NCBI GenBank assembly: GCA_963756875.1
Contig: CAVWPA010000002.1
Coordinates: 105,336-169,335, forward strand
Direction: 5' to 3'
Length of the DNA stretch: 64,000 bases
From: an uncultured Verrucomicrobiae bacterium
GTDB taxonomy: Bacteria > Verrucomicrobiota > Verrucomicrobiia > Chthoniobacterales > UBA10450
Positions 4,435 through 59,580 of this stretch are shown piece by piece. Each line of letters begins with the position of its first letter. Position 1 is the stretch's first letter. The position numbers and the translations under genes were made by a program. A model generated the notes under the pieces. It was not told where the DNA came from. It saw only the letters and a list, made by a program, of their open reading frames with translations, and made no database searches.

Positions 4435-6075
4435 CCGAAGTCCTTTTGGAATCAAAACGCGGTCGAGAAGATCGAAAAGCCACTGAACCAGCAACGCCAG
4501 AAGCGCCGCTGGAATCGCGCCTTCCAGAATAGTGACGTGATCGTTCAGGTTCAGTCCGCTCAAGATCGGTTCGCCCAACCCGCCGGCGCCGATCAAGGCG
4601 GCGAGAGTGGCCGTGCCGATGCTGATTACCGCGCTGGTTTTGATTCCTGCCAGAATGGATCGCGAAGCGAGTGGCAAATAAATCTTTCGTAGACGCGCTC
4701 CCGGTCCCAGGCCAAGCGCGATCGCCGAGTCGCGAACCGGTTGAGCGATGTCCTGCAAGCCGCTGGCCGTGTTGCGCACGATCGGCAGAAGCCCGTAAAG
4801 AAAAAGCGCGACGATAGCAGTCCGCGTGCTGATTCCAAAAAACGGCAGCGGCACGAGCAACGCCAGCAACGCCAGCGCTGGAATCGTTTGCACCATCCCC
4901 GTAAAGCCGAGGATCACGTGGCCGACCGCGCCGCCGCGACTGGCGAAGATGCCGAGCGGAATTCCGATCAGCACCGACAGGAGGAGGGCGGCCCCGGCAA
5001 GTTCGAGGTGGCGCAAAGTCCAGCGCGCGAGTTTATGCCAAAATGTTTCGCCGAAAGCGGCTGTCTTTCCGGCAGCGGTTCCAAAATACAAGCTCGCCGC
5101 TCGCGAGTAATTTTTCGTTCGCTCGGCTTCCGCGTTCAATCGAATCATCCGTTGCTCATCGATTGTTCCCTCCAGTTTGTGCAGTACGTCGATCGCTGGC
5201 ATTGGAAGCGCGAGGCGATATAGAAACACGGCATCGTAACGCGGAAAAAACTTCAGATTATCCTCGAGCGTGACCAGATCGTATTCGGCAAGTTTGGCAT
5301 CGGTTGAGTAGGCGTCCTTTACATCAATAGAACCGCTCTTCAGCGCGGCATAACCAAGCGCGTGATCGATCCCGATTACGGTCTGCGGATGCAATTGATA
5401 ATCCTCCGCGAGCGGCCGCCAGCCGTCGTTTCGATCCAGAAATTCGTGCGTAAGCCCGAATCTGAGCTCGGGATGCGCCCGCAGGTCGCTGATGGTGTGA
5501 ATGCCAAGTTGCTGCGCCTGATTTCGCCGCATGACCAGCGCGTAGGTGTTGTTGAAGCCAAGCGGCTTTGTCATGCCCACGCCAAATTTTTGAAGCGCGT
5601 CGCGAATTTCGCGGTTCGACAACCGGTTATTCGTTTTCAAGATCTCCTGTGTGATCGTTCCCGTGTATTCGGGATAGGTGTCGATCTGTGCGCCGCGCAA
5701 CGCTTCCCAGAGAATGATCGTGCCGCCCATTCCTTGACGATGTTCCGCGGGAATACCGGCGTTGATAAGTGCGTGTTTCGCTACTTCTCCAAGCACGTAA
5801 GACTCAGTGAATTTTTTTGAGCCAATTGTAATGGGCTTCGCATGCGCGCTATGCAAACCGATCAGAAGATTTGCAACGATTAGCACGTGGTAACGAACAG
5901 ATCGACGGATGAGCGCGATTTCCGGGGAGCGCACGCTCCCTCGCGTGCGGCGCTTGGCGCCCTCGCCAGGCGCATACCCGGTGCGTGGCGTTACCGCGCA
6001 CGAGGTTTTCGGCGGGGGCGCCGAAAACGGCACGCGAGGCGCGCGCGCTCCCCGGAGCTCTCGCGTCGCCGTCAT
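4429..6075 (-). CDS. Betaine/ergothioneine-type ABC transporter, fused substrate-binding domain plus permease
   Basis: IGSKKFTESY, IDTYPEYTGT, GFNNTYAL (OpuAC/OsmF-like SBP) followed by a TM domain (TIPALALLAL, GAGGLG); start overlaps the ATPase stop (ATGA); start uncertain because a repeat follows it. Confidence 0.85.
   Translation of the reverse strand: MTATRELRGARAPRVPFSAPPPKTSCAVTPRTGYAPGEGAKRRTRGSVRSPEIALIRRSVRYHVLIVANLLIGLHSAHAKPITIGSKKFTESYVLGEVAKHALINAGIPAEHRQGMGGTIILWEALRGAQIDTYPEYTGTITQEILKTNNRLSNREIRDALQKFGVGMTKPLGFNNTYALVMRRNQAQQLGIHTISDLRAHPELRFGLTHEFLDRNDGWRPLAEDYQLHPQTVIGIDHALGYAALKSGSIDVKDAYSTDAKLAEYDLVTLEDNLKFFPRYDAVFLYRLALPMPAIDVLHKLEGTIDEQRMIRLNAEAERTKNYSRAASLYFGTAAGKTAAFGETFWHKLARWTLRHLELAGAALLLSVLIGIPLGIFASRGGAVGHVILGFTGMVQTIPALALLALLVPLPFFGISTRTAIVALFLYGLLPIVRNTASGLQDIAQPVRDSAIALGLGPGARLRKIYLPLASRSILAGIKTSAVISIGTATLAALIGAGGLGEPILSGLNLNDHVTILEGAIPAALLALLVQWLFDLLDRVLIPKGLRL
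5921..6056. repeat. GGGGAGCGCAC-family long inverted repeat element
   Basis: TCCGGGGAGCGCACGCTCCCTCGCGTGC...GCACGCGAGGCGCGCGCGCTCCCCGGA; related copies at about 48134-48177, 49828-49875 and 62892-62956. Confidence 0.8.
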
Positions 6076-31302: not shown

Positions 31303-31405
31303 GATTAAAATCCCAAATCCCAGGCATCAACATCCGAAGAAACTGGTGCTTGGGGTTTGGTGCTTTGTGTTCTGCCTGGCTACAGCGCTGGTGCGCTCGG
31401 TCTTC

Positions 31406-31480
31406 CTGTAGCCACCGGCCTATGGCCGGTCGGACAACCAAAAACCAAGAGCTCGACGGCTCACAGAGCCGTGGCTACAG
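31406..31480. repeat. GTAG REP doublet flanking the RAYT (left)
   Basis: CTGTAGCCACCGGCCTATGGCCGGTC...GACGGCTCACAGAGCCGTGGCTACAG. Confidence 0.9.
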
Positions 31481-31501
31481 ATTGAATGAGAATATTTTCT
31501 T

Positions 31502-31972
31502 GTGACACAGCGCTTTCAGCGGCGGCCTTTACGTCTCCATCGAGTTTTTGACGCGAGCCCACTTTACTTCGTTACCTTTTGCACGCATCGCCGAAAGCCA
31601 TGTCTGGCCCGCGCTGACGTTCACACGGTTTTCATTCGCTTTGGCGAGCGTGCGGAGAGCGAATTTAATATCGCGATTGGCCGATACGTGATAATGCCCG
31701 ACCACATTCATCTCTTCGTCCGCGGAGGCCCGACTTTTGTCCTGGGTCTTTGGGTGGGCACGCTCAAGCAATCGCTGGCCAAAGTGCCCAACTTCTCAAA
31801 GGTGGGCGAACAAGTTTGGAAAGAGGGATTCTTCGATCACGTCTTGCGGAACGATGAGAGTTATGCACAGAAATGGAATTACGTTCGGGAGAATCCCGTG
31901 CGGGCTGGATTTGTAGAAACGGCCGAAGACTGGCCCTTTCAGGGAGAAATCGTTTACATCGATCGCGCGTGA
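31502..31972 (+). mobile_element. REP-associated tyrosine transposase (RAYT, Y1 HUH family)
   Basis: YFVTFCT, YVIMPDHIH (HUH), WKEGFFDHVLR, YVRENPVRAG (catalytic Tyr), WP; flanked on both sides by REP doublets. Confidence 0.92.
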
Positions 31973-31986
31973 CGATGCTTTGCAAG

Positions 31987-32071
31987 CTGTAGCCACCGGG
32001 CCTATGGCCGGTCAGATCCGAGGCTTGAAAACACAACCGCCAGGGGACGGCTCACAAAGCCGTGGCTACAG
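31987..32071. repeat. GTAG REP doublet flanking the RAYT (right)
   Basis: Near-identical arms to 31406-31480; overlaps the 3' end of the next gene. Confidence 0.9.
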
Positions 32072-49978: not shown

Positions 49979-50589
49979 ATGACACGCAAACTACTTCTTT
50001 GGGCGCTGATCGCGGTCCCCATCTGTTATTACTTTGGGCTAATCGTTGGTGCGGCGACTTATCCCGGTTACAGCCACATCACCCGTTATGCGAGTGAGCT
50101 CGGCGCTGCCGGCGCGCCATATCCGGCACTGTTCAATGTCTCGATTATGATCGGCGGCGCGTTAGCCGTACTTGCATCGATCGGTCTCGCGATTGCGCTT
50201 CACGATCAAGTGACGGCGGCGGCTGGCTATGGGCCGTTCTGGCTGGAGTCGCTCTGGCCTGCTGGGGCGCCTCCATGGTAATGGGCGGAATGTTTCCGAT
50301 GCCCGACCCGCGTCACGGCGGGCTTGGGCTCGGTCTTTCGGCACCTCTTGTGCCGTTGTTCGCGTTGCTGGCAATTCGAAAACTTCCGAACGCGACCGGA
50401 ATGAAGCTCTTTCTCGCCTTTATCTTTCTCGGGTCGTTGATCGTGCTGGCGATCATGTTCGGCGTGGGACACCTGGTCACGCGTCACAACGTCGGAATTT
50501 GGCAGCGGATCAACTCCGGAATCTCCATTCCCTGGTTCGCGGTGCTCGGGTGTTGGCTGCTCACTCGCGCGCGAAAGAAATGGGTGTAG
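49979..50589 (+). CDS. DUF998-like membrane protein (apparent frameshift at about 50209)
   Basis: YPGYSHITRYASELGA...FN in the first ORF; GMFP and GIWQRI in the second. Confidence 0.7.
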
Positions 50590-50768
50590 AGGCGCCCGTC
50601 TCGGGTGCAATGCCAGTCCGGCCTCGGGCTCGCGGGTGTCTCACCGCGACGAACGTTCCGATGTTCTGCAGAAGGGTCCTAAAGGATTCTTTCAGACCCC
50701 ATTTTCCCGCGCATCGTGGACGATCTCTATCGTTCGCGGTCATTTTTCTGATAGATTAAGGTACGCCC

Positions 50769-51437
50769 ATGGCTGATTCATCAGTTACAGAAAAACGACG
50801 ACTGGCTGCACCGTGCGTGACGCCGCAGGCGCTGGCCTGGGACGGGAAACAGCTTTGGCTCAGCTCGCGCGATCTAGGCACGCTCTATCGAACCAACAAC
50901 GGTGACGGATTGAAGATTGTCGAGGAAATCGATCCGCCGGGAACGGTATGGGCGGCGGTGCTGACAAACCGCGGCTGGCGGTTCACGATCGGCAAAGGAT
51001 TAAATGACGACCGCTACGTCTATAGTTATACTGCGGCCGACGGGTTCAGGAAGTTGTTTGCCTGCCCGGAATTTACCGGCTCCTATCTCAGCTTCGACGG
51101 CGAACATCTGTACCTGAGCCAATGGTACAAAGGACAGATCCATCGGATGGACGATTCAGGAACCATTTCGCGCACGATTGACGTCGGCGCGGAAATATGC
51201 GGGCACACATTCGTCGATGGGACGCTCTATGTGCTGCGTGGGCGCGAGAACAAGGACATTCCAAACAGAGGAGAGGAATGGCACATCGCCCGCCTCGATC
51301 CTGAGAAAGAAACACCGGAGGTAAAAGACCTCGCGGAGATTCCATTCGCATCGCGGTCGCTAGCGTTCGACGGCGAGTTCTTCTGGTCGAATCATCGCGC
51401 CGGAAACGAGACGATCGCGTTTGCCATCCCTGACTAA
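50769..51437 (+). CDS. Hypothetical beta-propeller protein (glutamine cyclotransferase-like repeats)
   Basis: Repeated LAWDGKQLW / LSFDGEHLY / LAFDGEFFW blades; TAAGGT-N6-ATG upstream. Confidence 0.7.
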   Translation: MADSSVTEKRRLAAPCVTPQALAWDGKQLWLSSRDLGTLYRTNNGDGLKIVEEIDPPGTVWAAVLTNRGWRFTIGKGLNDDRYVYSYTAADGFRKLFACPEFTGSYLSFDGEHLYLSQWYKGQIHRMDDSGTISRTIDVGAEICGHTFVDGTLYVLRGRENKDIPNRGEEWHIARLDPEKETPEVKDLAEIPFASRSLAFDGEFFWSNHRAGNETIAFAIPD

Positions 51438-51545
51438 CGAATGGCAAGATCCCCAGGTTCACAAAGGCCGAATTCGATGCGATGAAAAAAAGGAAAAGAA
51501 GAAATGAATTTGGAGCAATCTTCTCGATGCCTCTCGCGTCCTCCA

Positions 51546-51571
51546 AATGTCAAAAATATAGATGCGACCCC
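51546..51571 (-). repeat. GGGGTC-type terminal inverted repeat (right-end orientation)
   Basis: AATGTCAAAAATATAGATGCGACCCC; 25 bp identical to 53778-53802. Confidence 0.85.
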
Positions 51572-51629
51572 ATTATTTTCCATTTTCCTAACGACCTGAT
51601 GTCAGGAGAGGGGACCGATTATCGAAGAG

Positions 51630-52013
51630 ATGGACGAGCATAATATTCGCGCGGCGATAGATCGACATTGGGCCGCCTCCGCCGCGGGCGATCAAGTGGG
51701 CGAACACGAAATCTATCACGATGACGTTGTCTGCGAGTACCCACAGTCAGGCGAGATAATTTATGGTCGCCAAAATCTGCAGGCGTTGCGTAGCCACCAC
51801 CCTGATAAGCCATCTGAGTTTACCGTCAGGCGGATCGTAGGAGAAGGTAAGCTCTGGGTTAGCGAGTACGTGATTAACTACGGCGGCAAACGTCTCTTTA
51901 CCGTGAGTGTCATGGAGTTTCGAGACGGAAGAGTGTCGCACGAGACACAATATTTCGCCGATTCATTTGATGCTCCTGCCTGGCGCGCCCAATGGGTCGG
52001 GCGCGCGCTATGA
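51630..52013 (+). CDS. SnoaL-like / NTF2 family protein
   Basis: EIYHDDVVCEYPQSGE, FRDGRVSHETQYF. Confidence 0.85.
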   Translation: MDEHNIRAAIDRHWAASAAGDQVGEHEIYHDDVVCEYPQSGEIIYGRQNLQALRSHHPDKPSEFTVRRIVGEGKLWVSEYVINYGGKRLFTVSVMEFRDGRVSHETQYFADSFDAPAWRAQWVGRAL

Positions 52014-52180
52014 TTCACCGAGACATTCCCGCAATGCTAGGACCGACGAGCGATGAGCGGAGGCGAACCGGTTCGCGGCTTCCTGCAGCACAGTTGTAAC
52101 TTTACTTTCCTGCCAAGGTCTGAATAATTTACTCAGCGCGAGGTTCGTCAGGCGTCTCCGCAAATCACTCCGCTAATTCG

Positions 52181-52909
52181 ATGGATCACAACCGGAAGAC
52201 AGTGATAGTTACGGGAGCGTCGCAAGGTATCGGTGCCGGCATCGCCCAGGCATTTCTCGCCCGCGGCTACGATGTGGTAGCAACCGCGCGAAGCGCGACG
52301 AAATCCAAGGAACTTTCAGCTTCCGACCATCTCGCACTGGTCGACGGCGACATCGGTCAATTTGAGACGGCGCAGAAAGTGGCCGAACTCGCGACCAGTA
52401 AGTTCGGCTCGATCGATGCCGTGGTCGCGAACGCCGGCATCTTCATAGTGAAGCCGTTCACGGAATACACAGCGGACGACTTTCGCGCCCTCGTCTCGAC
52501 CAACCTTGCAGGCTTCGTTTACATCACGCAGCTGGCGGTTAAACAGATGCAGGCGCAGAAGAGAGGCGGCAGCATCGTGAGCATCACCGCCGCGTTGGTG
52601 GACAATCCAATTGTCGGCGAGCCGGCTTCCGTGGCCATGATCACTAAGGGTGGCCTGAACGCGGTGGTGAGAAGTTTGGCTTTGGAATACGCGAAAGAGC
52701 GTATTCGATTCAACGCCGTCGCGCCGGGCGTCGTCGACACCCCGCTGCACGCCGATGCTCCGAAGGACTCGCTGAAAAGAGCTTCGCCGATGGGCTCAAT
52801 CACGACGGTGGAAGACATCGCCAGCGCGGTCGTTTATCTGACAGAAGCTCGTCAAATCACAGGAGAGGTGTTGCACGTCGACGGTGGTGCGCACATTGGC
52901 AAATGGTAG
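52181..52909 (+). CDS. SDR family oxidoreductase
   Basis: TGASQGIG, NAG, NAVAPG, TGEVLHVDGG; active site reads MITKG rather than YxxxK. Confidence 0.9.
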   Translation: MDHNRKTVIVTGASQGIGAGIAQAFLARGYDVVATARSATKSKELSASDHLALVDGDIGQFETAQKVAELATSKFGSIDAVVANAGIFIVKPFTEYTADDFRALVSTNLAGFVYITQLAVKQMQAQKRGGSIVSITAALVDNPIVGEPASVAMITKGGLNAVVRSLALEYAKERIRFNAVAPGVVDTPLHADAPKDSLKRASPMGSITTVEDIASAVVYLTEARQITGEVLHVDGGAHIGKW

Positions 52910-52981
52910 AAAATTCCAATTCGACCGGCGCCGAGCAGCGTTTGCGGGAACTCGCCATCAAACTTCCGGAGGGAAAAAAAT

Positions 52982-53803
52982 GCGGTCGCGTCTAAATATT
53001 TGACATTCGCGCGAGCTAAGGCCACGCAGTTCTTGGTTAATTGTTATTCGTCGGCGACGAAGCCCGGAGCATGGTGATTGCGATAACCATTGGCAGGAAG
53101 CGGGCGGATGGACATAAAGTAAGTGCATGAGCAAGGCTGGTAGCGAAAAGCAGAAGCTGTCGGCGGAACAGCGTGACGAATTATTAAAGACCGTGAAGGC
53201 CCGTTTCGAAAAGAACATGAGCCGCCATAAAGGGGTCGAGTGGGCCAAAGTAGAAGCCAGGCTAAAGGCTAATGCCGACAAACTCTGGTCACTCCATGAG
53301 ATGGAAAGAACCGGCGGTGAACCGGATGTGGTGGGTCAGGATAAGAAGACGGGCGAATACGTCTTCTTCGACTGTTCAGCACAAACTCCCGGTGACCGGG
53401 TAAGCCTTTGCTACGACGATGAGGCGCTGGCGGCGAGGAAAGAGCACAAGCCCAAAGGTAGCGCTGTCGGCATGGCCGCGGCCATGGGTGTTGAACTCCT
53501 GACTGAGGAGCAATATTTCGAGCTGCAGAAGCTGGGAGAATTCGATACGAAAAGATCGAGCTGGATCAAGACGCCTGCGGAGATCAGAAAGCTCGGCGGT
53601 GCGCTTTATTGTGATCGCCGCTACGGCCGCGTCTTCGTGGGGCACAACGGCGCGGACTCCTACTATAGCGGCCGGGCTTTCCGTGGCTCGCTCAGGGTCT
53701 GACTTTTCGCGGGTCGCGAATCGAATTCAAAGAAATGAATTTTGAGCGGCTCCCTCGACGGTCCTCGGAGTCATGGAAATGTCAAAAATATAGATGCGAC
53801 CCA
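52982..53803. mobile_element. TIR-bounded non-autonomous cassette carrying a DUF4256 gene
   Basis: Left 52982-53007 GCGGTCGCGTCTAAATATTTGACATT and right 53778-53803 are inverted repeats (21/26); no transposase inside. Confidence 0.65.
53127..53702 (+). CDS. DUF4256 domain protein
   Basis: RFEKNMSRH, MERTGGEPDVV, SLCYD, HNGADSYYSGRAFRGSLRV. Confidence 0.85.
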   Translation: MSKAGSEKQKLSAEQRDELLKTVKARFEKNMSRHKGVEWAKVEARLKANADKLWSLHEMERTGGEPDVVGQDKKTGEYVFFDCSAQTPGDRVSLCYDDEALAARKEHKPKGSAVGMAAAMGVELLTEEQYFELQKLGEFDTKRSSWIKTPAEIRKLGGALYCDRRYGRVFVGHNGADSYYSGRAFRGSLRV

Positions 53804-53880
53804 TCCACCACTTTACGGACCTCGGCATCGATAAAACTTTCACCCTCGCATGTCGATCCGTAGCCGGTTAGGCTCGATCT

Positions 53881-54689
53881 ATGTTGTCAAACAGCGGCAG
53901 AGTGCTTCTCGAAGATCAAAGAGTGGATCAGGACCTCGTAGATGCTAAGTTCTGCAATCACCAGCTTGTTCGACTGGTCGCGAAGAAACATCGATTTAAG
54001 GAGGTTGACTTCAGATATTCGACATTCGACGCCTGTTATCTTCGAAAGTGTGCGTTTGAGTCGTGCGACTTTACGGGTTGCCGCTTCGTCGCCAGCAACT
54101 TTTATGGGTCAACATTTGAAGGATGCATCTTTGATTATGCGATATTCGAGAGAACCATAATAGCTAGCGACCTTCTCCTAACATGCTGCCCCGCGCACGA
54201 GAATTTGAAAATGAGTTTCGCTCGGACGTTGCGTACAGTTCTGAACAACTTGGCGACGCTCATGCCACGAACGTGGCAATTAAAATTGAACTGGAGGCTA
54301 CCGAGGAACATCTATACAAGGCATGGCATTCGAAAGATTACTATTATCGGTCGAAATATCCGAAGTGGAAGCGAGCCGTTGCGTTCTGGAATTGGCTCAA
54401 GTTCAAATTTCTAGATTGGATTTGGGGGAACGGCGAAAGCGCGCTAAAGCTCTTGTATGCGGTTCTCGCCGTACTCGCGCTAATAGCGGTACGCGATGTT
54501 TTTCTGCGCCGGGACCCATCGCAACTTCTTGATTATTTCGCCGCGGCTGTCGACGCGCCGCAGATATTTCTCGGAACGCTTGTGCCTTCGGGCTACTCCG
54601 CTGGATATCTAGCTGTTATCGTTTTTTTCAGATTGGTGGCTTTCGCGTTCTTGATGTCTATCGTTATTAAACGATTCAGCCGGCGTTAG
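53881..54689 (+). CDS. Pentapeptide-repeat protein with C-terminal TM segments (apparent frameshift at about 54238)
   Basis: FKEVD FRYST FDACY LRKCA FESCD FTGCR repeats; second ORF has WGNGES plus 2-3 hydrophobic helices. Confidence 0.75.
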
Positions 54690-54692
54690 CGC

Positions 54693-55372
54693 ATGCATAT
54701 CTATGCTTTTGGATCTGTCTGCCGGGGAGATGTTCGCGTAGGTTCAGATGTCGATCTTCTCGCTTTGGTTGATGGATACGATCCCCGTTTCGATCCGGAC
54801 ACGTTTTCAGTGTATTCGTATGATCGCGCGCGCGAATTATGGCGAGAAGGAAATCCGTTTGCATGGCATCTGTTTCTCGAGTCAACGCTCGTCTTCGCTT
54901 CTGACGATGGCGATTTTCTGGCATCCTTGGGCTCACCAGGAGAATACAGGAACTGTGTTCGGGACTGTGAAAAATTCCACGATGTATTTTGTGAAGCATA
55001 TGATTCGATCAGGGCCGGGTCGCATAGCAACGTGTTCGAATTATCCACTCTTTTTTTGAGTATCCGGAATATTGCGAGACGTGCTTTTCGCTTGGAGCGA
55101 CGAACGAACCGACGTTTTCAAGAGACTCTGCTCGACGGTTGGGCAAGGAGAGTGTGCCGATTCCTGAAGGCGCATACGCGATCGTGGAGCGAGCCCGTGT
55201 TCTATCGACACGTGGAAAGGGCAGGCGAATCGCGGAAAAAGAAGTTGCCGAAGCAATTGCGGGACTGCACCCTGTAAAGGAATGGATGGAGGGCTTGATT
55301 ACTCGAGCGCGAAATTATGAACCAGTTCCAAAATCGAATGTCCGCGCAACGGCAGATCCTCGGCTTGGTTAA
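54693..55372 (+). CDS. Nucleotidyltransferase domain protein (apparent 2-bp insertion at about 55077)
   Basis: IYAFGSVCRGD...SDVDLL Pol-beta-type GS/DxD motif; GNPFAWHL; helical C-terminal domain after frame correction. Confidence 0.8.
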
Positions 55373-55649
55373 CGGCAAGCATTGGCACGCAGAGGAATTG
55401 TGTGGCCTATCAAATAAGGCGATTGAGCGATGGACTGCTGTTAACGCTATCGAGTCTAATTCAAATCTGGTAGAGTTGATTAAAATTGCTTCCGGGAAGC
55501 TCTTCTTTCTCGCGAACAAGAGTCAGGAACAAATTTCCGAAGACTATCAGACCGCTTCGCGTGAAGTTGCTGAACTCACGAATGCCATTGCTACGGAACT
55601 CAAAGGAGGATCGGAAAATAGGGGTCAGTCAACAAATCTTGAATGTTAA
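55317..55649 (+). CDS. Small helical hypothetical protein
   Basis: 110-aa ORF overlapping the NTase end; last residues are encoded by the TIR at 55621. Confidence 0.65.
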   Translation: MNQFQNRMSAQRQILGLVNGKHWHAEELCGLSNKAIERWTAVNAIESNSNLVELIKIASGKLFFLANKSQEQISEDYQTASREVAELTNAIATELKGGSENRGQSTNLEC

Positions 55650-56604
55650 CCACGCACCGAACCTTAGTCGTATTGCTGTGCTGCATGCTCTTTTCGAATT
55701 GCAGCAAGGCTCCTCCAGCGCAGCCCCAGACAGACACAGAGAAGCGCATACGAGGAGGCCGCGAAAATCGCAGCGGAACGTGAGCATCTTTCAGAACTTC
55801 AGCAGGAGCAGCGCGAAAAAGTTGCGACGGATCTTGCCTCGCGAACCGATACCAGAGAGGCTAGACGAGCAGCAACTCTGGAGCACGCAGCTGCCGAGCA
55901 AGCGCGACGCGAAGGAATTACCGCAGAGTTGAAGACGTTCGTCGACAGCGTGTGGGTTGAGCGCAGCCAAATTAATGACACGCAGACGCTGCGTATGAAC
56001 GGTCAAAAGGTGAAGCCCGGCTCCATTTTAGTATCTCCCGCTGGGTACTCCGTGAAGTACATAAAGGAAGATGGCCGTTCTTTTTTGGTTCACCTATGAC
56101 GAAGACGCCTTTTCAGTGACGCTCAAAAAGACCTCGCGGTGTCTCAATAGCTGAAACTAAATCCAAGCAGCCGGCTGGCCGAAGGATTCGAAGTCGATCA
56201 GAAACTTCCGGAAGTGCCTTCCGGAGAAACGGTTTCTACGACTCTAGCAGCCTCGCGAGGTCTTCTTGTGTTGAAAGCCAGTTATGGTGCCGGGCAAGTT
56301 CAGCGTGATGTGAAAGATCTTGTGAGGTCAAAAATTCAGAATGGCCGACTCGATTTCAGCGCAAACAGCGGAGAGCTCGGAGGAGATCCTATCTTTGGGC
56401 AGGTGAAGACGTTTTATATAGAGTATGTCGCCAACGGCAGAGTTATGAAAAAGAGTTTCAGGGAAGGCGAACACGTATCTTTGCCATAAGCCGTCTAAAC
56501 GAGGGAAGTGGGAACAGAAAAGCGGTCAGCCAATCGCGTGGATCCAACGCCAGCCTCATTCGCTTGCAAGCGGCTCCGCTAGTCAAGATATGTTGACTGA
56601 CCCC
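55621..56604. mobile_element. TIR-bounded non-autonomous cassette carrying a lipoprotein-like gene
   Basis: GGGGTCAGTCAACAAATCTTGAA ... GTCAAGATATGTTGACTGACCCC (21/23 inverted match). Confidence 0.75.
55643..56489 (+). pseudogene. Frameshifted lipoprotein: lipobox, coiled coil and DUF3395/lectin-like C-terminal domain
   Basis: MLTTHRTLVVLLCCMLFSNC at 55643; E/R/A-rich coiled-coil frame from about 55752; VLKASYGAG...GGDPIFGQVKTFYIEY in 56214-56489; several frame breaks. Confidence 0.5.
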
Positions 56605-56715
56605 AATTCTGTTGCACCGGCGCTTATTGCAATCGTCATTGAATCAAAAGCTGAAACGCTGAAAACTGAAAGGCTCAAAGCAGAAGTCAGAGCAGAGTCG
56701 CGGCAAAAGGAAATC

Positions 56716-56741
56716 GGGGTCAAATCTAAACTTTTGACATT
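56716..56741 (+). repeat. GGGGTC-type TIR (left-end orientation)
   Basis: GGGGTCAAATCTAAACTTTTGACATT. Confidence 0.8.
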
Positions 56742-56907
56742 TGAACAGCGAAACTTCGCCCTAGGCTCGGCCAACAATTCTCATCGCTAGCCGGCTTCGA
56801 AAAAGATAGACAGTATTCATGGCGGAGTATGATCCCAGTGAGTTGATCACGCTTTGCGCTTCGTCCTGGGCGACGGTGAAGTAACGTCCGATAGTGCAGG
56901 GAGAGCT

Positions 56908-56933
56908 GGGGTCGTGTCTAAACATTCAACATT
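56908..56933 (+). repeat. GGGGTC-type TIR (left-end orientation)
   Basis: GGGGTCGTGTCTAAACATTCAACATT. Confidence 0.8.
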
Positions 56934-57114
56934 TGAGCGCGCGGCCTGCGCGTTATTCGTTATTGGTTATTGGTTAGCGGCCGCCGACCCGGGGTGGCGA
57001 ATTGGATTGATCGATCCAGACGAGCATTTGTTTGCAGGCGTTTTGGTTCGGCGCGAAGAAAAGGCTTGCCCGGCGATCGGCGGTGAAATACAAACGAAAA
57101 TCGACTTAAAAGCC

Positions 57115-57594
57115 ATGAAATTCGCATCAATCATCCCAGCACCGTTGCTTGCACTATTGTTTCTCGGTGGGTTTGCCTCACCCGGCGTTGCGCAGGAATC
57201 CCGCTGGGGATCGCCGGGGGAGGATACGGTGAAGTTCATCATTGCGGCCGAGGCGAAGTGGGCGAACTCGGCCTGTAGCCCGCAGCCGGATCTTAAGGAC
57301 GTGATTGCGGATGACTTCCAGGGGACATCGCCAAGCGGACGGCGCTACGGCAAGAACGAAGCGATCAGCACAGATACCAAGTCGCTTTCGCGCGATTGCC
57401 AACTGGGTGAGGTAAAGGTGAGATTTTTCGGCGACTCCATCGCGATCGTGTATGGAGCGGAAAGCGCGGTCTCCAAGGCTAAAGATGGCAAGGAGACAAA
57501 GCATTGTCTGATCTGGACCGACACGTGGCTCAAACGCGCCGGAAAATGGCAGATCGTGGCTGCGCAGGATACGAACATCCCTTGTAAGCCTTAG
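57115..57594 (+). CDS. Secreted NTF2-like (DUF4440) protein
   Basis: Signal peptide; IADDFQGTSPSG, VRFFGD, WTDTWLKRAGKWQIVAAQ. Confidence 0.85.
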   Translation: MKFASIIPAPLLALLFLGGFASPGVAQESRWGSPGEDTVKFIIAAEAKWANSACSPQPDLKDVIADDFQGTSPSGRRYGKNEAISTDTKSLSRDCQLGEVKVRFFGDSIAIVYGAESAVSKAKDGKETKHCLIWTDTWLKRAGKWQIVAAQDTNIPCKP

Positions 57595-57603
57595 GCGGTC
57601 GCG

Positions 57604-57709
57604 CTAGCTCTTGCGCCTCGGTCGTCTTTGGGAGCGCGGAAAACATGCGCACAACCCGGAGCGCGAACGCCTTCGTCCGATCGCGCAGATCCTCTTCTTC
57701 CTTGATCAC
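57604..57709 (-). pseudogene. Truncated four-helix-bundle protein (TIGR02436-like) N-terminus
   Basis: Own translation: VIKEEEDLRDRTKAFALRVVRMFSALPKTTEAQEL; similarity then stops before the expected Q-x-x-RSGTSIGANY segment. Confidence 0.7.
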
Positions 57710-57796
57710 TCGCGCCCCCGCTCTCGTGCCAGCAACCTAGCTGCGCCCCGTCCATGTCGCGGCTTCCATCGCCGCTCCATTCTGCATTCCTCCTTA

Positions 57797-58252
57797 TTAT
57801 TTTTTCAGCTTCGCCCTCGCCGCCCGGTAATTGGCCATGTGCTCCTCCGCGGACACGCGCGCAACGGTGCGGCCGACCACGTCGAGAGCCAGGTCGTCCA
57901 ACTTTTTGAACCGGACGCAACCTTTACCCATGTCGAGCTTCTTGCCGCTCTTCTTGTATTCGCTGGCGAACCAGGTGGAGAGAGTGGGATGACCGTAGAA
58001 GCACAGGAAATGCAGCACCATGCCGGACTTCTGCGATCCGAGCGCAACCAATGGCAGCGGCACTTTGGGATTCTCGCCATAGCCCGCTGGATACAGGGAG
58101 AGCGGGACGTACCAGCCGATCATCCCGAACTGCATGCCTTCCTCATATCCGTCAGGCAGGTTCTCATTGATCGCCTTGCGCACGGCGCTGAGCGCGGTGC
58201 GGCGCTCCGCGGGGAGTGCGGCGAGGTATTGGGCCACGGTGGAAGCTGGCAT
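57797..58252 (-). CDS. DUF1801 domain protein
   Basis: TVAQYLAALPAERR, GYEEGMQFGMIGW, KLDMGKGCVRFKK. Confidence 0.88.
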   Translation of the reverse strand: MPASTVAQYLAALPAERRTALSAVRKAINENLPDGYEEGMQFGMIGWYVPLSLYPAGYGENPKVPLPLVALGSQKSGMVLHFLCFYGHPTLSTWFASEYKKSGKKLDMGKGCVRFKKLDDLALDVVGRTVARVSAEEHMANYRAARAKLKK

Positions 58253-58480
58253 GTTGGCGACGATATCCGTCGAACTGTGCGGCGGACAAGCCTCATGCAC
58301 CGCACCGCCGCTCTCCCTCTCCTCACGACGATGCTGGACTGTGGCCGTCGCTCATCATCCGTTGGCCGGGCCACCGTGCGCAAAAACGCGTTCCAGCGCG
58401 GGTCGTTGTGAAGACTGCGGGTCGGCGGTGAAGTGCGATAGCGCTCGCTGTGAGAGCGCGCGGGCGTAGGTTGCAGGCCT

Positions 58481-59473
58481 ATGGCGCGCACAATTCGTTT
58501 TCATCAAACCGGCGGTCCGGAAGTTTTCCAGATCGAAGACCTTGACGTGCCAGCGCCGAAGCAAGGCGAAGTGCGCATTACGGTCAAGGCGCTCGGCTTG
58601 AACCGTGCGGAGTCGATGTTCCGCAACGGGCAGTATCTCGAGCAGCCGCAGTTTCCCGCGCGCAACGGCTACGAGGCTGCGGGCACGGTCGAGTCGGTCG
58701 GTGAAGCTGTGGAAGGCTTTCAGCCCGGCGACGCGGTCAGCACGATCCCCGGATTTTCGCTCAACCAATACGGGGTCTACGGCGAGGTCGTCCTCGCGCC
58801 TGCGGCGATGGTCGTGAAGCATCCGGCCTCGCTTTCATGGGAAGAGGCTGCCTCGGTTTGGATGCAATACGTGACCGCCTATGGCGCGCTGATCGAGCTC
58901 GGCAAAATGAAGAAGCGCGACACGGTCCTCATCCCGGCGGCCTCGAGTAGCGTCGGCCTTGCGGCCATTCAGATCACGAACCTGATTGGCGCGACCCCGA
59001 TCGCGCTCACGCGCACGAACGAAAAGCGGCAGGCCTTGCTCGACGCCGGCGCGAAGCATGTCATCGCCACCGAGGAAGAGGACCTGGTCGAGCGCGTGCA
59101 AAAGCTGACCCGCGGCAAAGGCGCGCGCCTCGTCTTCGATCCGGTCGCCGGACCTACGCTCGCGAAGCTGGCCGCAGCCACGAAGCAAAACGGGATCATT
59201 TTCGAATACGGCGCGCTCAGCACCGAGCCGACGCCGTTCCCGCTTTTCGAGGTGCTGGGTAAATTGCTGACCGTGCGCGGCTACGTGCTCTCGGCAGTGA
59301 CCGGCGACGCAAAACGACTGGCGCGCGCGAAGCAGTTCATCATCGACGGGCTCGCCTCCGGGAAGTTGAAGCCGATCATCTCGAAGGTTTTCAAAGGTCT
59401 CGACCAGATGGTGGAGGCACATCGCTACATGGAGAGCAACCAGCAGATCGGGAAGATCGTGCTCACGGTGTAG
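58481..59473 (+). CDS. MDR family NADPH:quinone reductase-like protein
   Basis: GGPEV, GLNRAE, GYEAAG, AASSSVGLAAIQ, AHRYMESNQQIGKIV. Confidence 0.9.
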   Translation: MARTIRFHQTGGPEVFQIEDLDVPAPKQGEVRITVKALGLNRAESMFRNGQYLEQPQFPARNGYEAAGTVESVGEAVEGFQPGDAVSTIPGFSLNQYGVYGEVVLAPAAMVVKHPASLSWEEAASVWMQYVTAYGALIELGKMKKRDTVLIPAASSSVGLAAIQITNLIGATPIALTRTNEKRQALLDAGAKHVIATEEEDLVERVQKLTRGKGARLVFDPVAGPTLAKLAAATKQNGIIFEYGALSTEPTPFPLFEVLGKLLTVRGYVLSAVTGDAKRLARAKQFIIDGLASGKLKPIISKVFKGLDQMVEAHRYMESNQQIGKIVLTV

Positions 59474-59513
59474 GCGGGCCTCGATTAGATGATCATTGCC
59501 TGGTTCGTCGGAT

Positions 59514-59539
59514 GGGGTCGCGTCTAAATATTCGACATT
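59514..59539 (+). repeat. GGGGTC-type TIR (left-end orientation)
   Basis: GGGGTCGCGTCTAAATATTCGACATTCGCGCGAG; near-identical to 52982-53015. Confidence 0.85.
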
Positions 59540-59580
59540 CGCGCGAGGTAGGGCTGGGGGAGTTGAGAGCTGAAAATCTG

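Follow-up and report, generated by a model that had tools for sequence, protein, structure and literature searches.

Terminal inverted repeats, probably orphaned TIRtron ends, in a mosaic accessory region of an uncultured Verrucomicrobiae bacterium

Near the end of contig C2 in the assembly GCA_963756875.1 of an uncultured Verrucomicrobiae bacterium (here G000; 2.69 Mb in 3 contigs, 87.6% complete by markers), short GGGG-led repeats in both orientations lie among small accessory genes within about 9 kb; the window, that is, the whole stretch of DNA analysed, is the terminal 64 kb of that contig. The question raised by this locus is whether such repeats are the sites of a gene-cassette system, as was proposed from the letters without database searches (the sequence-only reading), or something else. 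As judged by comparison with related genomes, the repeats, 26–38 bp long, are quite likely the terminal inverted repeats (TIRs) of TIRtrons, orphaned within a mosaic of accessory genes, rather than parts of a new cassette system.

TIRtrons are described as genes resembling RAYTs (REP-associated tyrosine transposases, REP being repetitive extragenic palindromic sequences) located between long inverted repeats, many of which share the sequence GGGGWSAS; the same account speaks of “moderately abundant families of TIRs”, which occur singly, as dimers or in clusters (Di Nocera, De Gregorio & Rocco 2013, BMC Genomics 14:522, PMC3733652). The encoded proteins, TIRYTs, are mostly placed in TnpA_REP subclass 2.1, with a C-terminus like Bac_DnaA_C, HTH_23 or HTH_28, and are said there to go with inverted repeats rather than with secondary structures (Quentin et al. 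2018, BMC Genomics 19:475, PMC6006769).

The Repeats of the Window

The pattern GGGGTCNNNTCTAAANNTTNGACATT, built from the consensus of the sequence-only reading and searched with up to 3 mismatches, has six matches in the 64 kb, at 51546 (−), 52982 (+), 53778 (−), 56716 (+), 56908 (+) and 59514 (+), and none elsewhere in the window or in 100 dinucleotide-preserving shuffles; the repeats are real and clustered, and the first 50 kb are free of this pattern, as had been noticed. A repeat search adds a divergent inverted pair (55617–55642 and 56583–56608; 26 nt, 92% complementary), which constitutes a separate subfamily 2, GGGGTCAGTCAACAWATCTTGA, with its own transposase in relatives; all eight copies seen initially are present, but they do not form one family with a single consensus. 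The GGGGTC lead assigned to them applies to most, but 52982 starts with GCGGTC and 53778 ends with GACCCA, and a further, partial right end suspected at about 50692 is unconfirmed: the profile finds nothing there, and GACCCC is its one recognisable feature. The whole assembly holds eight copies of subfamily 1, six of them within these 9 kb (a profile search recovers the same eight at E ≤6.6e-5, the next match having an E of 9.3), and four of subfamily 2, two of them here; pooled, 8 of the 12 genome copies are found in 9 kb. The repeats are the following.

50674..50700, no strand: possible degenerate site GGGTCC...GACCCC, read by eye; nhmmer profile silent, unconfirmed
51546..51581, minus: subfamily-1 repeat with outer flank (26-mer 51546–51571), GGGG end rightward; 1 mismatch, profile E 2.5e-6
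52970..53007, plus: subfamily-1 repeat with outer flank (26-mer 52982–53007), starting GCGGTC; outer edge is the breakpoint truncating a RidA-like gene
53778..53803, minus: subfamily-1 repeat, ending GACCCA; 2 mismatches; inner ~73 nt resemble the 51546 copy (78%); a direct repeat in the repeat search (91%)
55621..55642, plus: subfamily-2 repeat GGGGTCAGTCAACAAATCTTGA, 0 mismatches, from the inverted-repeat search
56583..56604, minus: subfamily-2 repeat, inverted partner of 55621, 92% complementary
56716..56741, plus: subfamily-1 repeat, AAA variant, 0 mismatches; sole copy of the window with a fair hairpin (9 of 200 shuffles equal it)
56908..56933, plus: subfamily-1 repeat of the GTG...CAAC variant; G056 and G016 have copies with exactly this sequence
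59514..59539, plus: subfamily-1 repeat; 28 nt recur unchanged in a G143 copy whose context is different

Past the GGGG end follows a conserved purine-rich outer flank of about 10 nt, GGAAARNAAT; likeness of the flanks beyond about 30–47 nt is limited to two pairs of G000, 51546/53778 (73 nt, 78%) and 52982/59514 (43 nt, 91%). The longest inverted repeat of the region is formed by 51546 with 52982 (36 nt, 86%) and exceeds that of 52982 with 53778 (24 nt, 88%), so that the statement that each end matches its own partner best is correct between the subfamilies only. No direct repeats were seen in the flanks of the sites. A promoter or terminator reading of the site was set aside: TTGACA is present inside, but in the copies inspected by eye there is no consistently spaced −10 box, and the hairpin is weak. 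As a separate observation, intergenic DNA of G000 is rich in short low-complexity word repeats (AACGCCGAACGCCCAACG, GGACAGAGGACAGAGG, AGCATGAGCAGGAGC and CCAGCATCTAGCATCCAG, located together with a GTTATTGGTTAT-type motif at L006 10800–12250, L006 14130–14480 and L001 7100–7960); the GTTATTGGTTAT-type motif also lies beside three TIRYT-type sites (52982, 56908 and one in L002).

A Transposase Unit with the Same Ends

The relatives searched are 201 genomes of the same family, from 36 genera; for subfamily 1 the 26-mer was used with up to 2 mismatches and the reversed pattern as control. The tallies of subfamily-1 sites, thiC, the transposase and DUF4256, as well as the comparisons of the G016 and G116 units, include the unpublished genomes G002, G007, G014, G135, G155, G172 and G202, on which no specific claim depends.

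Five relatives contain a unit of ~1040 bp in which inverted 26-mers, about 1.0 kb apart, surround one open reading frame (ORF) of 324–328 amino acids (aa) (L008 12–1051; L009 4043–5088; L010 745–1775; L011 2778–3830; L019 from 2984); in three of the five genomes the 26-mers of the unit are mutually identical, and in L009 the frame is broken into two ORFs of 203 and 111 aa. The translated protein has H-F-H and YIHLNPVR motifs and matches the Pfam families Y1_Tnp (IS200-like; 45.1 bits) and Bac_DnaA_C (35.3 bits), the latter with 30–35 bits in four unit proteins at a cut-off of 31.5 bits. The GGGG ends point outward, and the gene terminates with MSNV-stop inside the right repeat. Between the units of G016 and G116 the homology runs strictly from repeat to repeat (query 1843–2891 against 1844–2889) while the flanks are unrelated; since it is confined in this way, the unit is discrete. 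At the level of sequence comparison, the sites are shown to be the ends of a Y1/HUH transposase unit. Whether a Y1 transposase with the same ends exists elsewhere had been posed as a check, and the premise of the sequence-only reading, that GGGG(A/T)C-led repeats flank a subgroup of RAYT-like transposases of the Y1/HUH type, is correct: the very same 26-mers do so in relatives, and such units have been published as TIRYT/TIRtron (PMC3733652). The array is a member of a known, barely studied transposon family.

Subfamily 2 likewise brackets a transposase homologue of its own, which is 35–48% identical to the subfamily-1 enzyme (repeat positions G036:C3 1013889/1014981, G021:C2 200953/202035 and G088:C91 286/1366). 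Farther away, 40 homologue loci were found in metagenome-assembled genomes of Verrucomicrobiota, Kiritimatiellia, Lentisphaerae and Planctomycetota (one genome per species scanned), and 13 of the 17 near full-length distant homologues examined from the Planctomycetes–Verrucomicrobia–Chlamydiae (PVC) group have GGGG-led inverted repeats at both ends. An empty site for the full TIRtron was not found in genus g17, where the matches were the element itself and one flank.

Two further observations concern these units. A small antitoxin-like ORF of G165 (L030 2000–2260), directly 3′ of thiC, enters a right-oriented site and ends in the site-encoded MSNV-stop, as TIRYT proteins do. Next to the TIRtron of G116 (L009 ~5428–5501) lies a 74-nt element with many copies in genus g17, for example at G109:C1:2313302–2313666, sometimes in tandem with a period of ~144 nt; this repeat family is unrelated to the TIRs.

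From these features a course of events can be proposed. TIRYT proteins are Y1 transposases (HUH, single catalytic tyrosine) of the IS200/RAYT superfamily with a C-terminal helix-turn-helix (HTH) like that of DnaA domain IV. The enzyme would recognise the ends, and it is a reasonable guess that the DnaA-like HTH does so on the duplex; the cut would be made at the GGGG edge or close to it. Further copies of the ends may spread in trans as singletons or short inverted dimers, by analogy with REP/RAYT systems, and would persist after the transposase has been lost.

Orphan Ends in G000 and Its Family

Subfamily 1 is present in 98 of the 201 family genomes (25 of the 36 genera), with at most 25 copies in any one of them, and subfamily 2 in 39 (17 genera), the reversed-pattern control giving 0 for either. 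Most sites of the relatives are singletons or dimers 60–170 nt apart, which adjoin genes for NAD kinase, an OPT transporter, a GH3 hydrolase or an ABC-transport operon, and also accessory genes; clustering in arrays, which was to be tested in related genomes, is marked in G000, and in the relatives scattered singletons or short dimers prevail.

The cognate enzyme was not found in the 87.6%-complete assembly of G000: the best match of the G016 protein has an E of 6.5e-5, with none at E ≤1e-20, and a search of contig C2 with E up to 10 detects no remnant, in agreement with the initial observation that transposase and target-site duplication are both missing. What G000 does carry are six other, short Y1_Tnp matches, which are RAYT-like genes. 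The one inspected, the ORF at 31502–31972 of the window, encodes such a protein of 156 aa with HIHLF and YVRENPVR motifs and sits in a classical REPtron (31398–32070), that is, between inverted GTAG-tagged palindromes (CTGTAGCCACCGGCC...GGCCGGT / ...CGTGGCTACAG). This REPtron is a system different from the TIRYT ends, side by side with them in one genome.

Among the relatives, 24 genomes possess a close transposase (53% identity or more, or a 63% fragment in G104), and one or more subfamily-1 sites are present in 22 of them. The converse is less regular: 6 of the 11 genomes with at least 9 such sites are without a close homologue, and a transposase match at E ≤1e-20 is missing altogether from G184 (25 sites; 94% complete) and from G056 (19 sites; 95%). 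Orphan ends are thus common in the family, and the ends appear to outlive their transposase.

Alternatively, the host might maintain the sites because they serve it in some way that involves no transposase, for example by binding a protein, by insulating or by marking transcript ends. G056 and G184 share a 5.4-kb operon, 81.7% identical and bracketed by inverted sites, and at these orthologous positions 30 nt of the site are identical; this, the 17–20 near-identical copies in genomes without a TIRYT match and the conserved purine-rich outer flank would suit a host function. However, these very sequences form the precise termini of a transposase unit, about half of the family genomes (103 of 201) have none, the loci read show no consistent placement relative to gene starts or ends, and the sites have no terminator-like hairpin, which makes this explanation distinctly improbable.

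Several points weigh against TIRtron ends as the explanation. The roughly 12% of G000 that is unassembled could hold a transposase, and two unit proteins score 49.8 and 48.4 bits against the NCBIfam model REP_Tyr_transpos (NF047646), whose cut-off is 80. Eleven of the 12 sites of G000 are confined to two stretches of ~10 kb each, where plain REP-like dispersal predicts otherwise, and same-strand arrays with a spacing of 2–3.6 kb in islands of relatives look modular: in L016 they are associated with RHS-repeat genes and large/small ORF pairs mostly without a Pfam family, in L017 with reverse-transcriptase and KAP-NTPase genes directly 3′ of thiC, and in L019 with genes for a methylase and a TIR-domain protein (here the protein domain). 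A hairpin-based HUH mechanism is not supported by the sequences: the internal dyad GTC-N14-GAC is paired to 78.3%, against 20–49% for slid controls, but lacks two-sided compensatory change, its covariation score being reached by 14 of 500 shuffles, and the hairpin is better than nearly all shuffles in 3 of 11 sites and no better in the other 8. This lack of hairpin support agrees with the remark, already mentioned, that TIRYTs go with inverted repeats (PMC6006769). Biochemical data on enzymes of the TIRYT family were not found in the literature searched, in which the terms were met only in PMC3733652 and PMC6006769.

The Genes Between the Ends

If the repeats were sites of a cassette system, the genes enclosed by them should behave as units. 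The genes and other features in question are these.

50769..51437, plus: 222-aa ORF, no Pfam family; a metagenome contig spans 51203–51437
51592..52969, plus: block of SnoaL_2 (51630–52013), SDR (52181–52909) and the first 22 codons of a RidA-like gene (52903–52969), by Pfam
53127..53702, plus: DUF4256 gene, Pfam 286 bits
53881..55649, plus: lower-GC segment, no coverage in 4 metagenome runs
53881–54414 and 54183–54689, plus: pentapeptide-repeat ORFs, within the lower-GC segment
54693–55277, plus: NTP_transf_2 ORF, and a 110-aa ORF, within the lower-GC segment
55644..56489, plus: lipoprotein-like coding sequence interrupted so as to occupy three frames, and a 91-aa ORF (56214–56489), by ORF reading and Pfam
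57038..58360, no strand: blocks of DUF4440 (57115–57594, plus) and DUF1801 (57797–58300, minus), common to G059
58364..59467, plus: Zn-dependent dehydrogenase block (gene 58481–59473), 94.9% identical to G067

Each of two inverted pairs was thought to enclose one gene. This is correct for DUF4256, but the “lipoprotein” is read in three frames (ORFs 55486–55932 and 55929–56099; the ATG at 55644 is followed by a stop after 46 codons). The genes for DUF998 (49979–50589), the pentapeptide-repeat protein (53881–54689) and the lipoprotein (55644–56099) are each split over overlapping frames, which could be due to gene decay or to indel errors of the assembly.

Homologues of DUF4256 are present in 89 of the 200 other genomes (69–91% nucleotide identity); in the alignments listed, the homology ends short of both repeats, and none of the best nine loci has a site of either subfamily within 1.5 kb. 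In several genera the gene is found near thiC, and it is therefore a resident gene. The SnoaL-SDR pair is enclosed by two sites with their GGGG ends turned towards it, and the block occurs as a whole, without the repeats, in another genus (G067; 89.3% identity over 51591–52969) and in two metagenomes; the X6 and X8 metagenome contigs of this block begin at 51592. Public metagenome runs contain at most 13% of the words of the window in any one run; contigs from four runs, aligned to the window at 90% likeness, leave 53911–55415 and 55717–56318 uncovered, a gap that is uninformative. “Skips” of 929–939 nt at 55641–56582 in such contigs do not represent excision: their sides match over 23–26 letters only, as other copies of the repeat do. 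A two-ended unit of repeat, cargo and repeat was not found at a second locus.

G000 does possess an integron. Its integrase (C3:1548413–1549354) scores 328.8 bits against TIGR02249 (cut-off 265), and the integron (C3:1540000–1549354; L006 1–9394) has at least 10 small cassettes on the same strand as intI, with attC sites of ~120 nt, RYCTAAC...GTTAGRY, in a single orientation. In general, attC sites have the layout R''-L''...L'-R', measure 57–141 nt and follow each cassette in one orientation. An integron reading of the array was rejected, its sites being 26–38 nt long, in both orientations and unlike the attC of G000 itself; no tyrosine recombinase was found on contig C2. Ends of the Tn3 type were discarded as well, for there is no DDE_Tnp_Tn3 match in the genome and the cognate gene of the relatives is Y1, not DDE.

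The pairs might, nevertheless, be decayed ordinary insertion sequences (IS) or mobile insertion cassettes, or the array that of an integron lacking its integrase. With this would go the span of the inverted pairs (0.8–1.0 kb, near the 1.04 kb of the transposase unit), the small unrelated genes mostly on one strand and the integron integrase present in the genome; the attC comparison, the missing Tn3-type transposase and recombinase, the negative remnant search on C2, the absence of a second unit and of visible direct repeats largely refute it, and it deserves hardly any credence. Cassettes captured by the ends are not supported; the genes between the ends would be ordinary resident or exchanged genes. 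The integron-like capture platform of the sequence-only reading is, on present evidence, not supported either, given the resident DUF4256, the SnoaL-SDR block without repeats elsewhere, the scattered singletons of the relatives and the different attC.

A Mosaic Region Downstream of thiC

Four blocks of the region (51592–52969, 57038–57607, 57812–58360 and 58364–59467) recur in other genera at 84–95% identity, and metagenome contigs carry them in rearranged order, while thiC of those genomes, as far as listed (G001 and G067), shows 80–82% identity. For the Zn-dehydrogenase block the identity to L032 (G067:C17) is 94.9%, with thiC at 82%, and the SDR block reaches 91% in G001 with thiC at 80%; because the blocks are more alike than thiC, recent exchange of the accessory genes between genera is suggested, and the accessory region 3′ of thiC may have been rebuilt from blocks passed among genera.

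Some of the breakpoints fall next to repeats. The left edge of the SnoaL-SDR block is 20 nt from the GGGG end of 51546. At the other side, a RidA-like gene (YjgF_endoribonc, 61.5 bits) that is intact after SDR in G165 and G067 ends in G000 after 22 codons at 52969, 3–13 nt outside the 52982 site, and reads into it. A 2300-nt contig of X6 matches 52433–52969 and 52976–53277 with 1455 extra letters in between; in a close relative, therefore, site and DUF4256 occupy the same position, and the deletion in G000 ends at the outer edge of the site. G056 and G184 differ by an indel of ~400 nt that directly abuts, on the outer side, the left site of their common operon. One-ended events at the GGGG edge would yield adjacent deletions or insertions of this kind, and some of the rearrangements in the region, the RidA-like truncation among them, probably go back to cutting or recombination at this outer edge. 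Coincidence of breakpoints with TIRs, another point proposed for checking, is found in part: inter-strain breakpoints lie within 3–20 nt of two of the eight window repeats, but the block edges 57812 and 58360 have no site, and 57038 and 59467 are 105 and 46 nt away from one.

In 11 genomes from 6 genera a site is located 0.2–9.3 kb downstream of thiC; this is a lead rather than a statistic, as the loci were chosen by eye among those listed and the genomes are related to one another. The content of this locus differs even within one genus; across L017, L023–L030 and L036 it comprises genes for reverse transcriptase with KAP NTPase, AIPR, HD-CE, AAA_15/AAA_21 ATPase, zeta toxin with PIN, and RelA_SpoT; the locus is a hypervariable accessory/defence region in six genera. 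The second cluster of G000 consists of three sites (C3:615737–625656; L091 7738–17657), of which two of subfamily 2, GGGG ends inward, bracket an operon of DNA methylase, ParB_N and a 545-aa protein; a Schlafen-like helicase fragment and a decayed SDR gene are also seen near this cluster.

These observations leave room for a platform of modular exchange, in which TIRYT acting in trans would cut the ends, accessory and defence modules would be inserted, deleted or swapped with the ends as junctions, and arrays of modules with their sites would accumulate at hot spots, the locus 3′ of thiC being one. Over six consecutive sites the orientation alternates; breakpoints 3–20 nt from the GGGG ends of 51546 and 52982 (G067, G165, X6, X8) and the 400-nt indel abutting a site in G056 versus G184 are of the sort that a platform predicts, and the same-orientation arrays in the three islands listed above, the second cluster around the methylase-ParB_N operon, the sites 3′ of thiC in 11 genomes and the cargo blocks more alike between genera than thiC (95% vs 82%) can be added. 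But no two-ended unit recurs at a second locus, the four remaining block edges are siteless or distant from a site, the 55641–56582 skip joints are other repeat copies, sites are mostly singletons and flank housekeeping operons too, and the thiC loci were picked by eye among genomes that are not independent. A platform is unlikely, and orphan TIRtron ends are retained as the explanation; what survives of the original idea is the closeness of two of the eight repeats to inter-strain breakpoints and the over-representation of the repeats in variable accessory/defence regions.

Comparison with Known Systems

With published TIRtrons the elements share the RAYT-like Y1/HUH gene, GGGGWSAS-led repeats, the Bac_DnaA_C-like HTH, the 3′ repeat overlapping the gene end, repeats that are moderately abundant as singles, dimers and clusters, and occurrence in the PVC superphylum, as far as PMC3733652 and PMC6006769 describe these. 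The fit to GGGGWSAS of PMC3733652 is complete for the GGGGTCAC and GGGGTCAG variants, while GGGGTCGC, GGGGTCGT and GGGGTCAA match 6–7 of 8 positions; some repeats of G000, starting GGGGTCG or GGGGTCAA, agree with the published 8-mer in part only. G000 differs further in that its repeats are orphans without a cognate gene in the assembly, the complete unit being found in relatives only, and in having two subfamilies together, with 11 of 12 copies in two accessory regions.

REP/REPIN-RAYT systems are similar in having a single-copy Y1 gene between inverted short repeats, which are also dispersed intergenically as singletons or inverted dimers and outlive the gene; the TIRYT sites, in contrast, lack a GTAG or CGTC tag, form at best a weak hairpin in 8 of 11 cases and are low in copy number, and the TIRYT protein is below the NCBIfam RAYT cut-off. 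The IS200/IS605 family has the HUH fold family Y1_Tnp in common, and no target-site duplication is seen here; its ends, however, are subterminal hairpins in direct orientation, not inverted repeats, and its transposases are not known to have a DnaA-like HTH. Integron arrays and clusters of attC sites lacking integron integrases (CALINs) resemble the locus in layout only, that is, in small accessory genes separated by short site-like repeats; size, sequence and orientation are unlike the attC of G000, and there is no integrase on the contig. In the dif modules of Acinetobacter plasmids the sites alternate in orientation, as they do in this array.

What the Array Means

A tempting false lead is removed, the array quite likely consisting of orphaned termini from a transposon family that was published in 2013 (PMC3733652). 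In addition, two TIRYT subfamilies, each with ends of its own, coexist in one verrucomicrobial family (in 25 and 17 of 36 genera), and the ends stay identical at orthologous sites after loss of the transposase. Were the exchange platform true after all, the locus 3′ of thiC would serve as a “module dock” operated by a transposase, and cassette-like arrays could arise in a third way, next to integrons and dif modules. On the reading preferred here, that of orphan TIRtron ends, the piling up of ends, seen in several genomes, in variable accessory/defence regions, with some breakpoints at their outer edge, is a hint as to how HUH enzymes with inverted repeats may reshape genomes.

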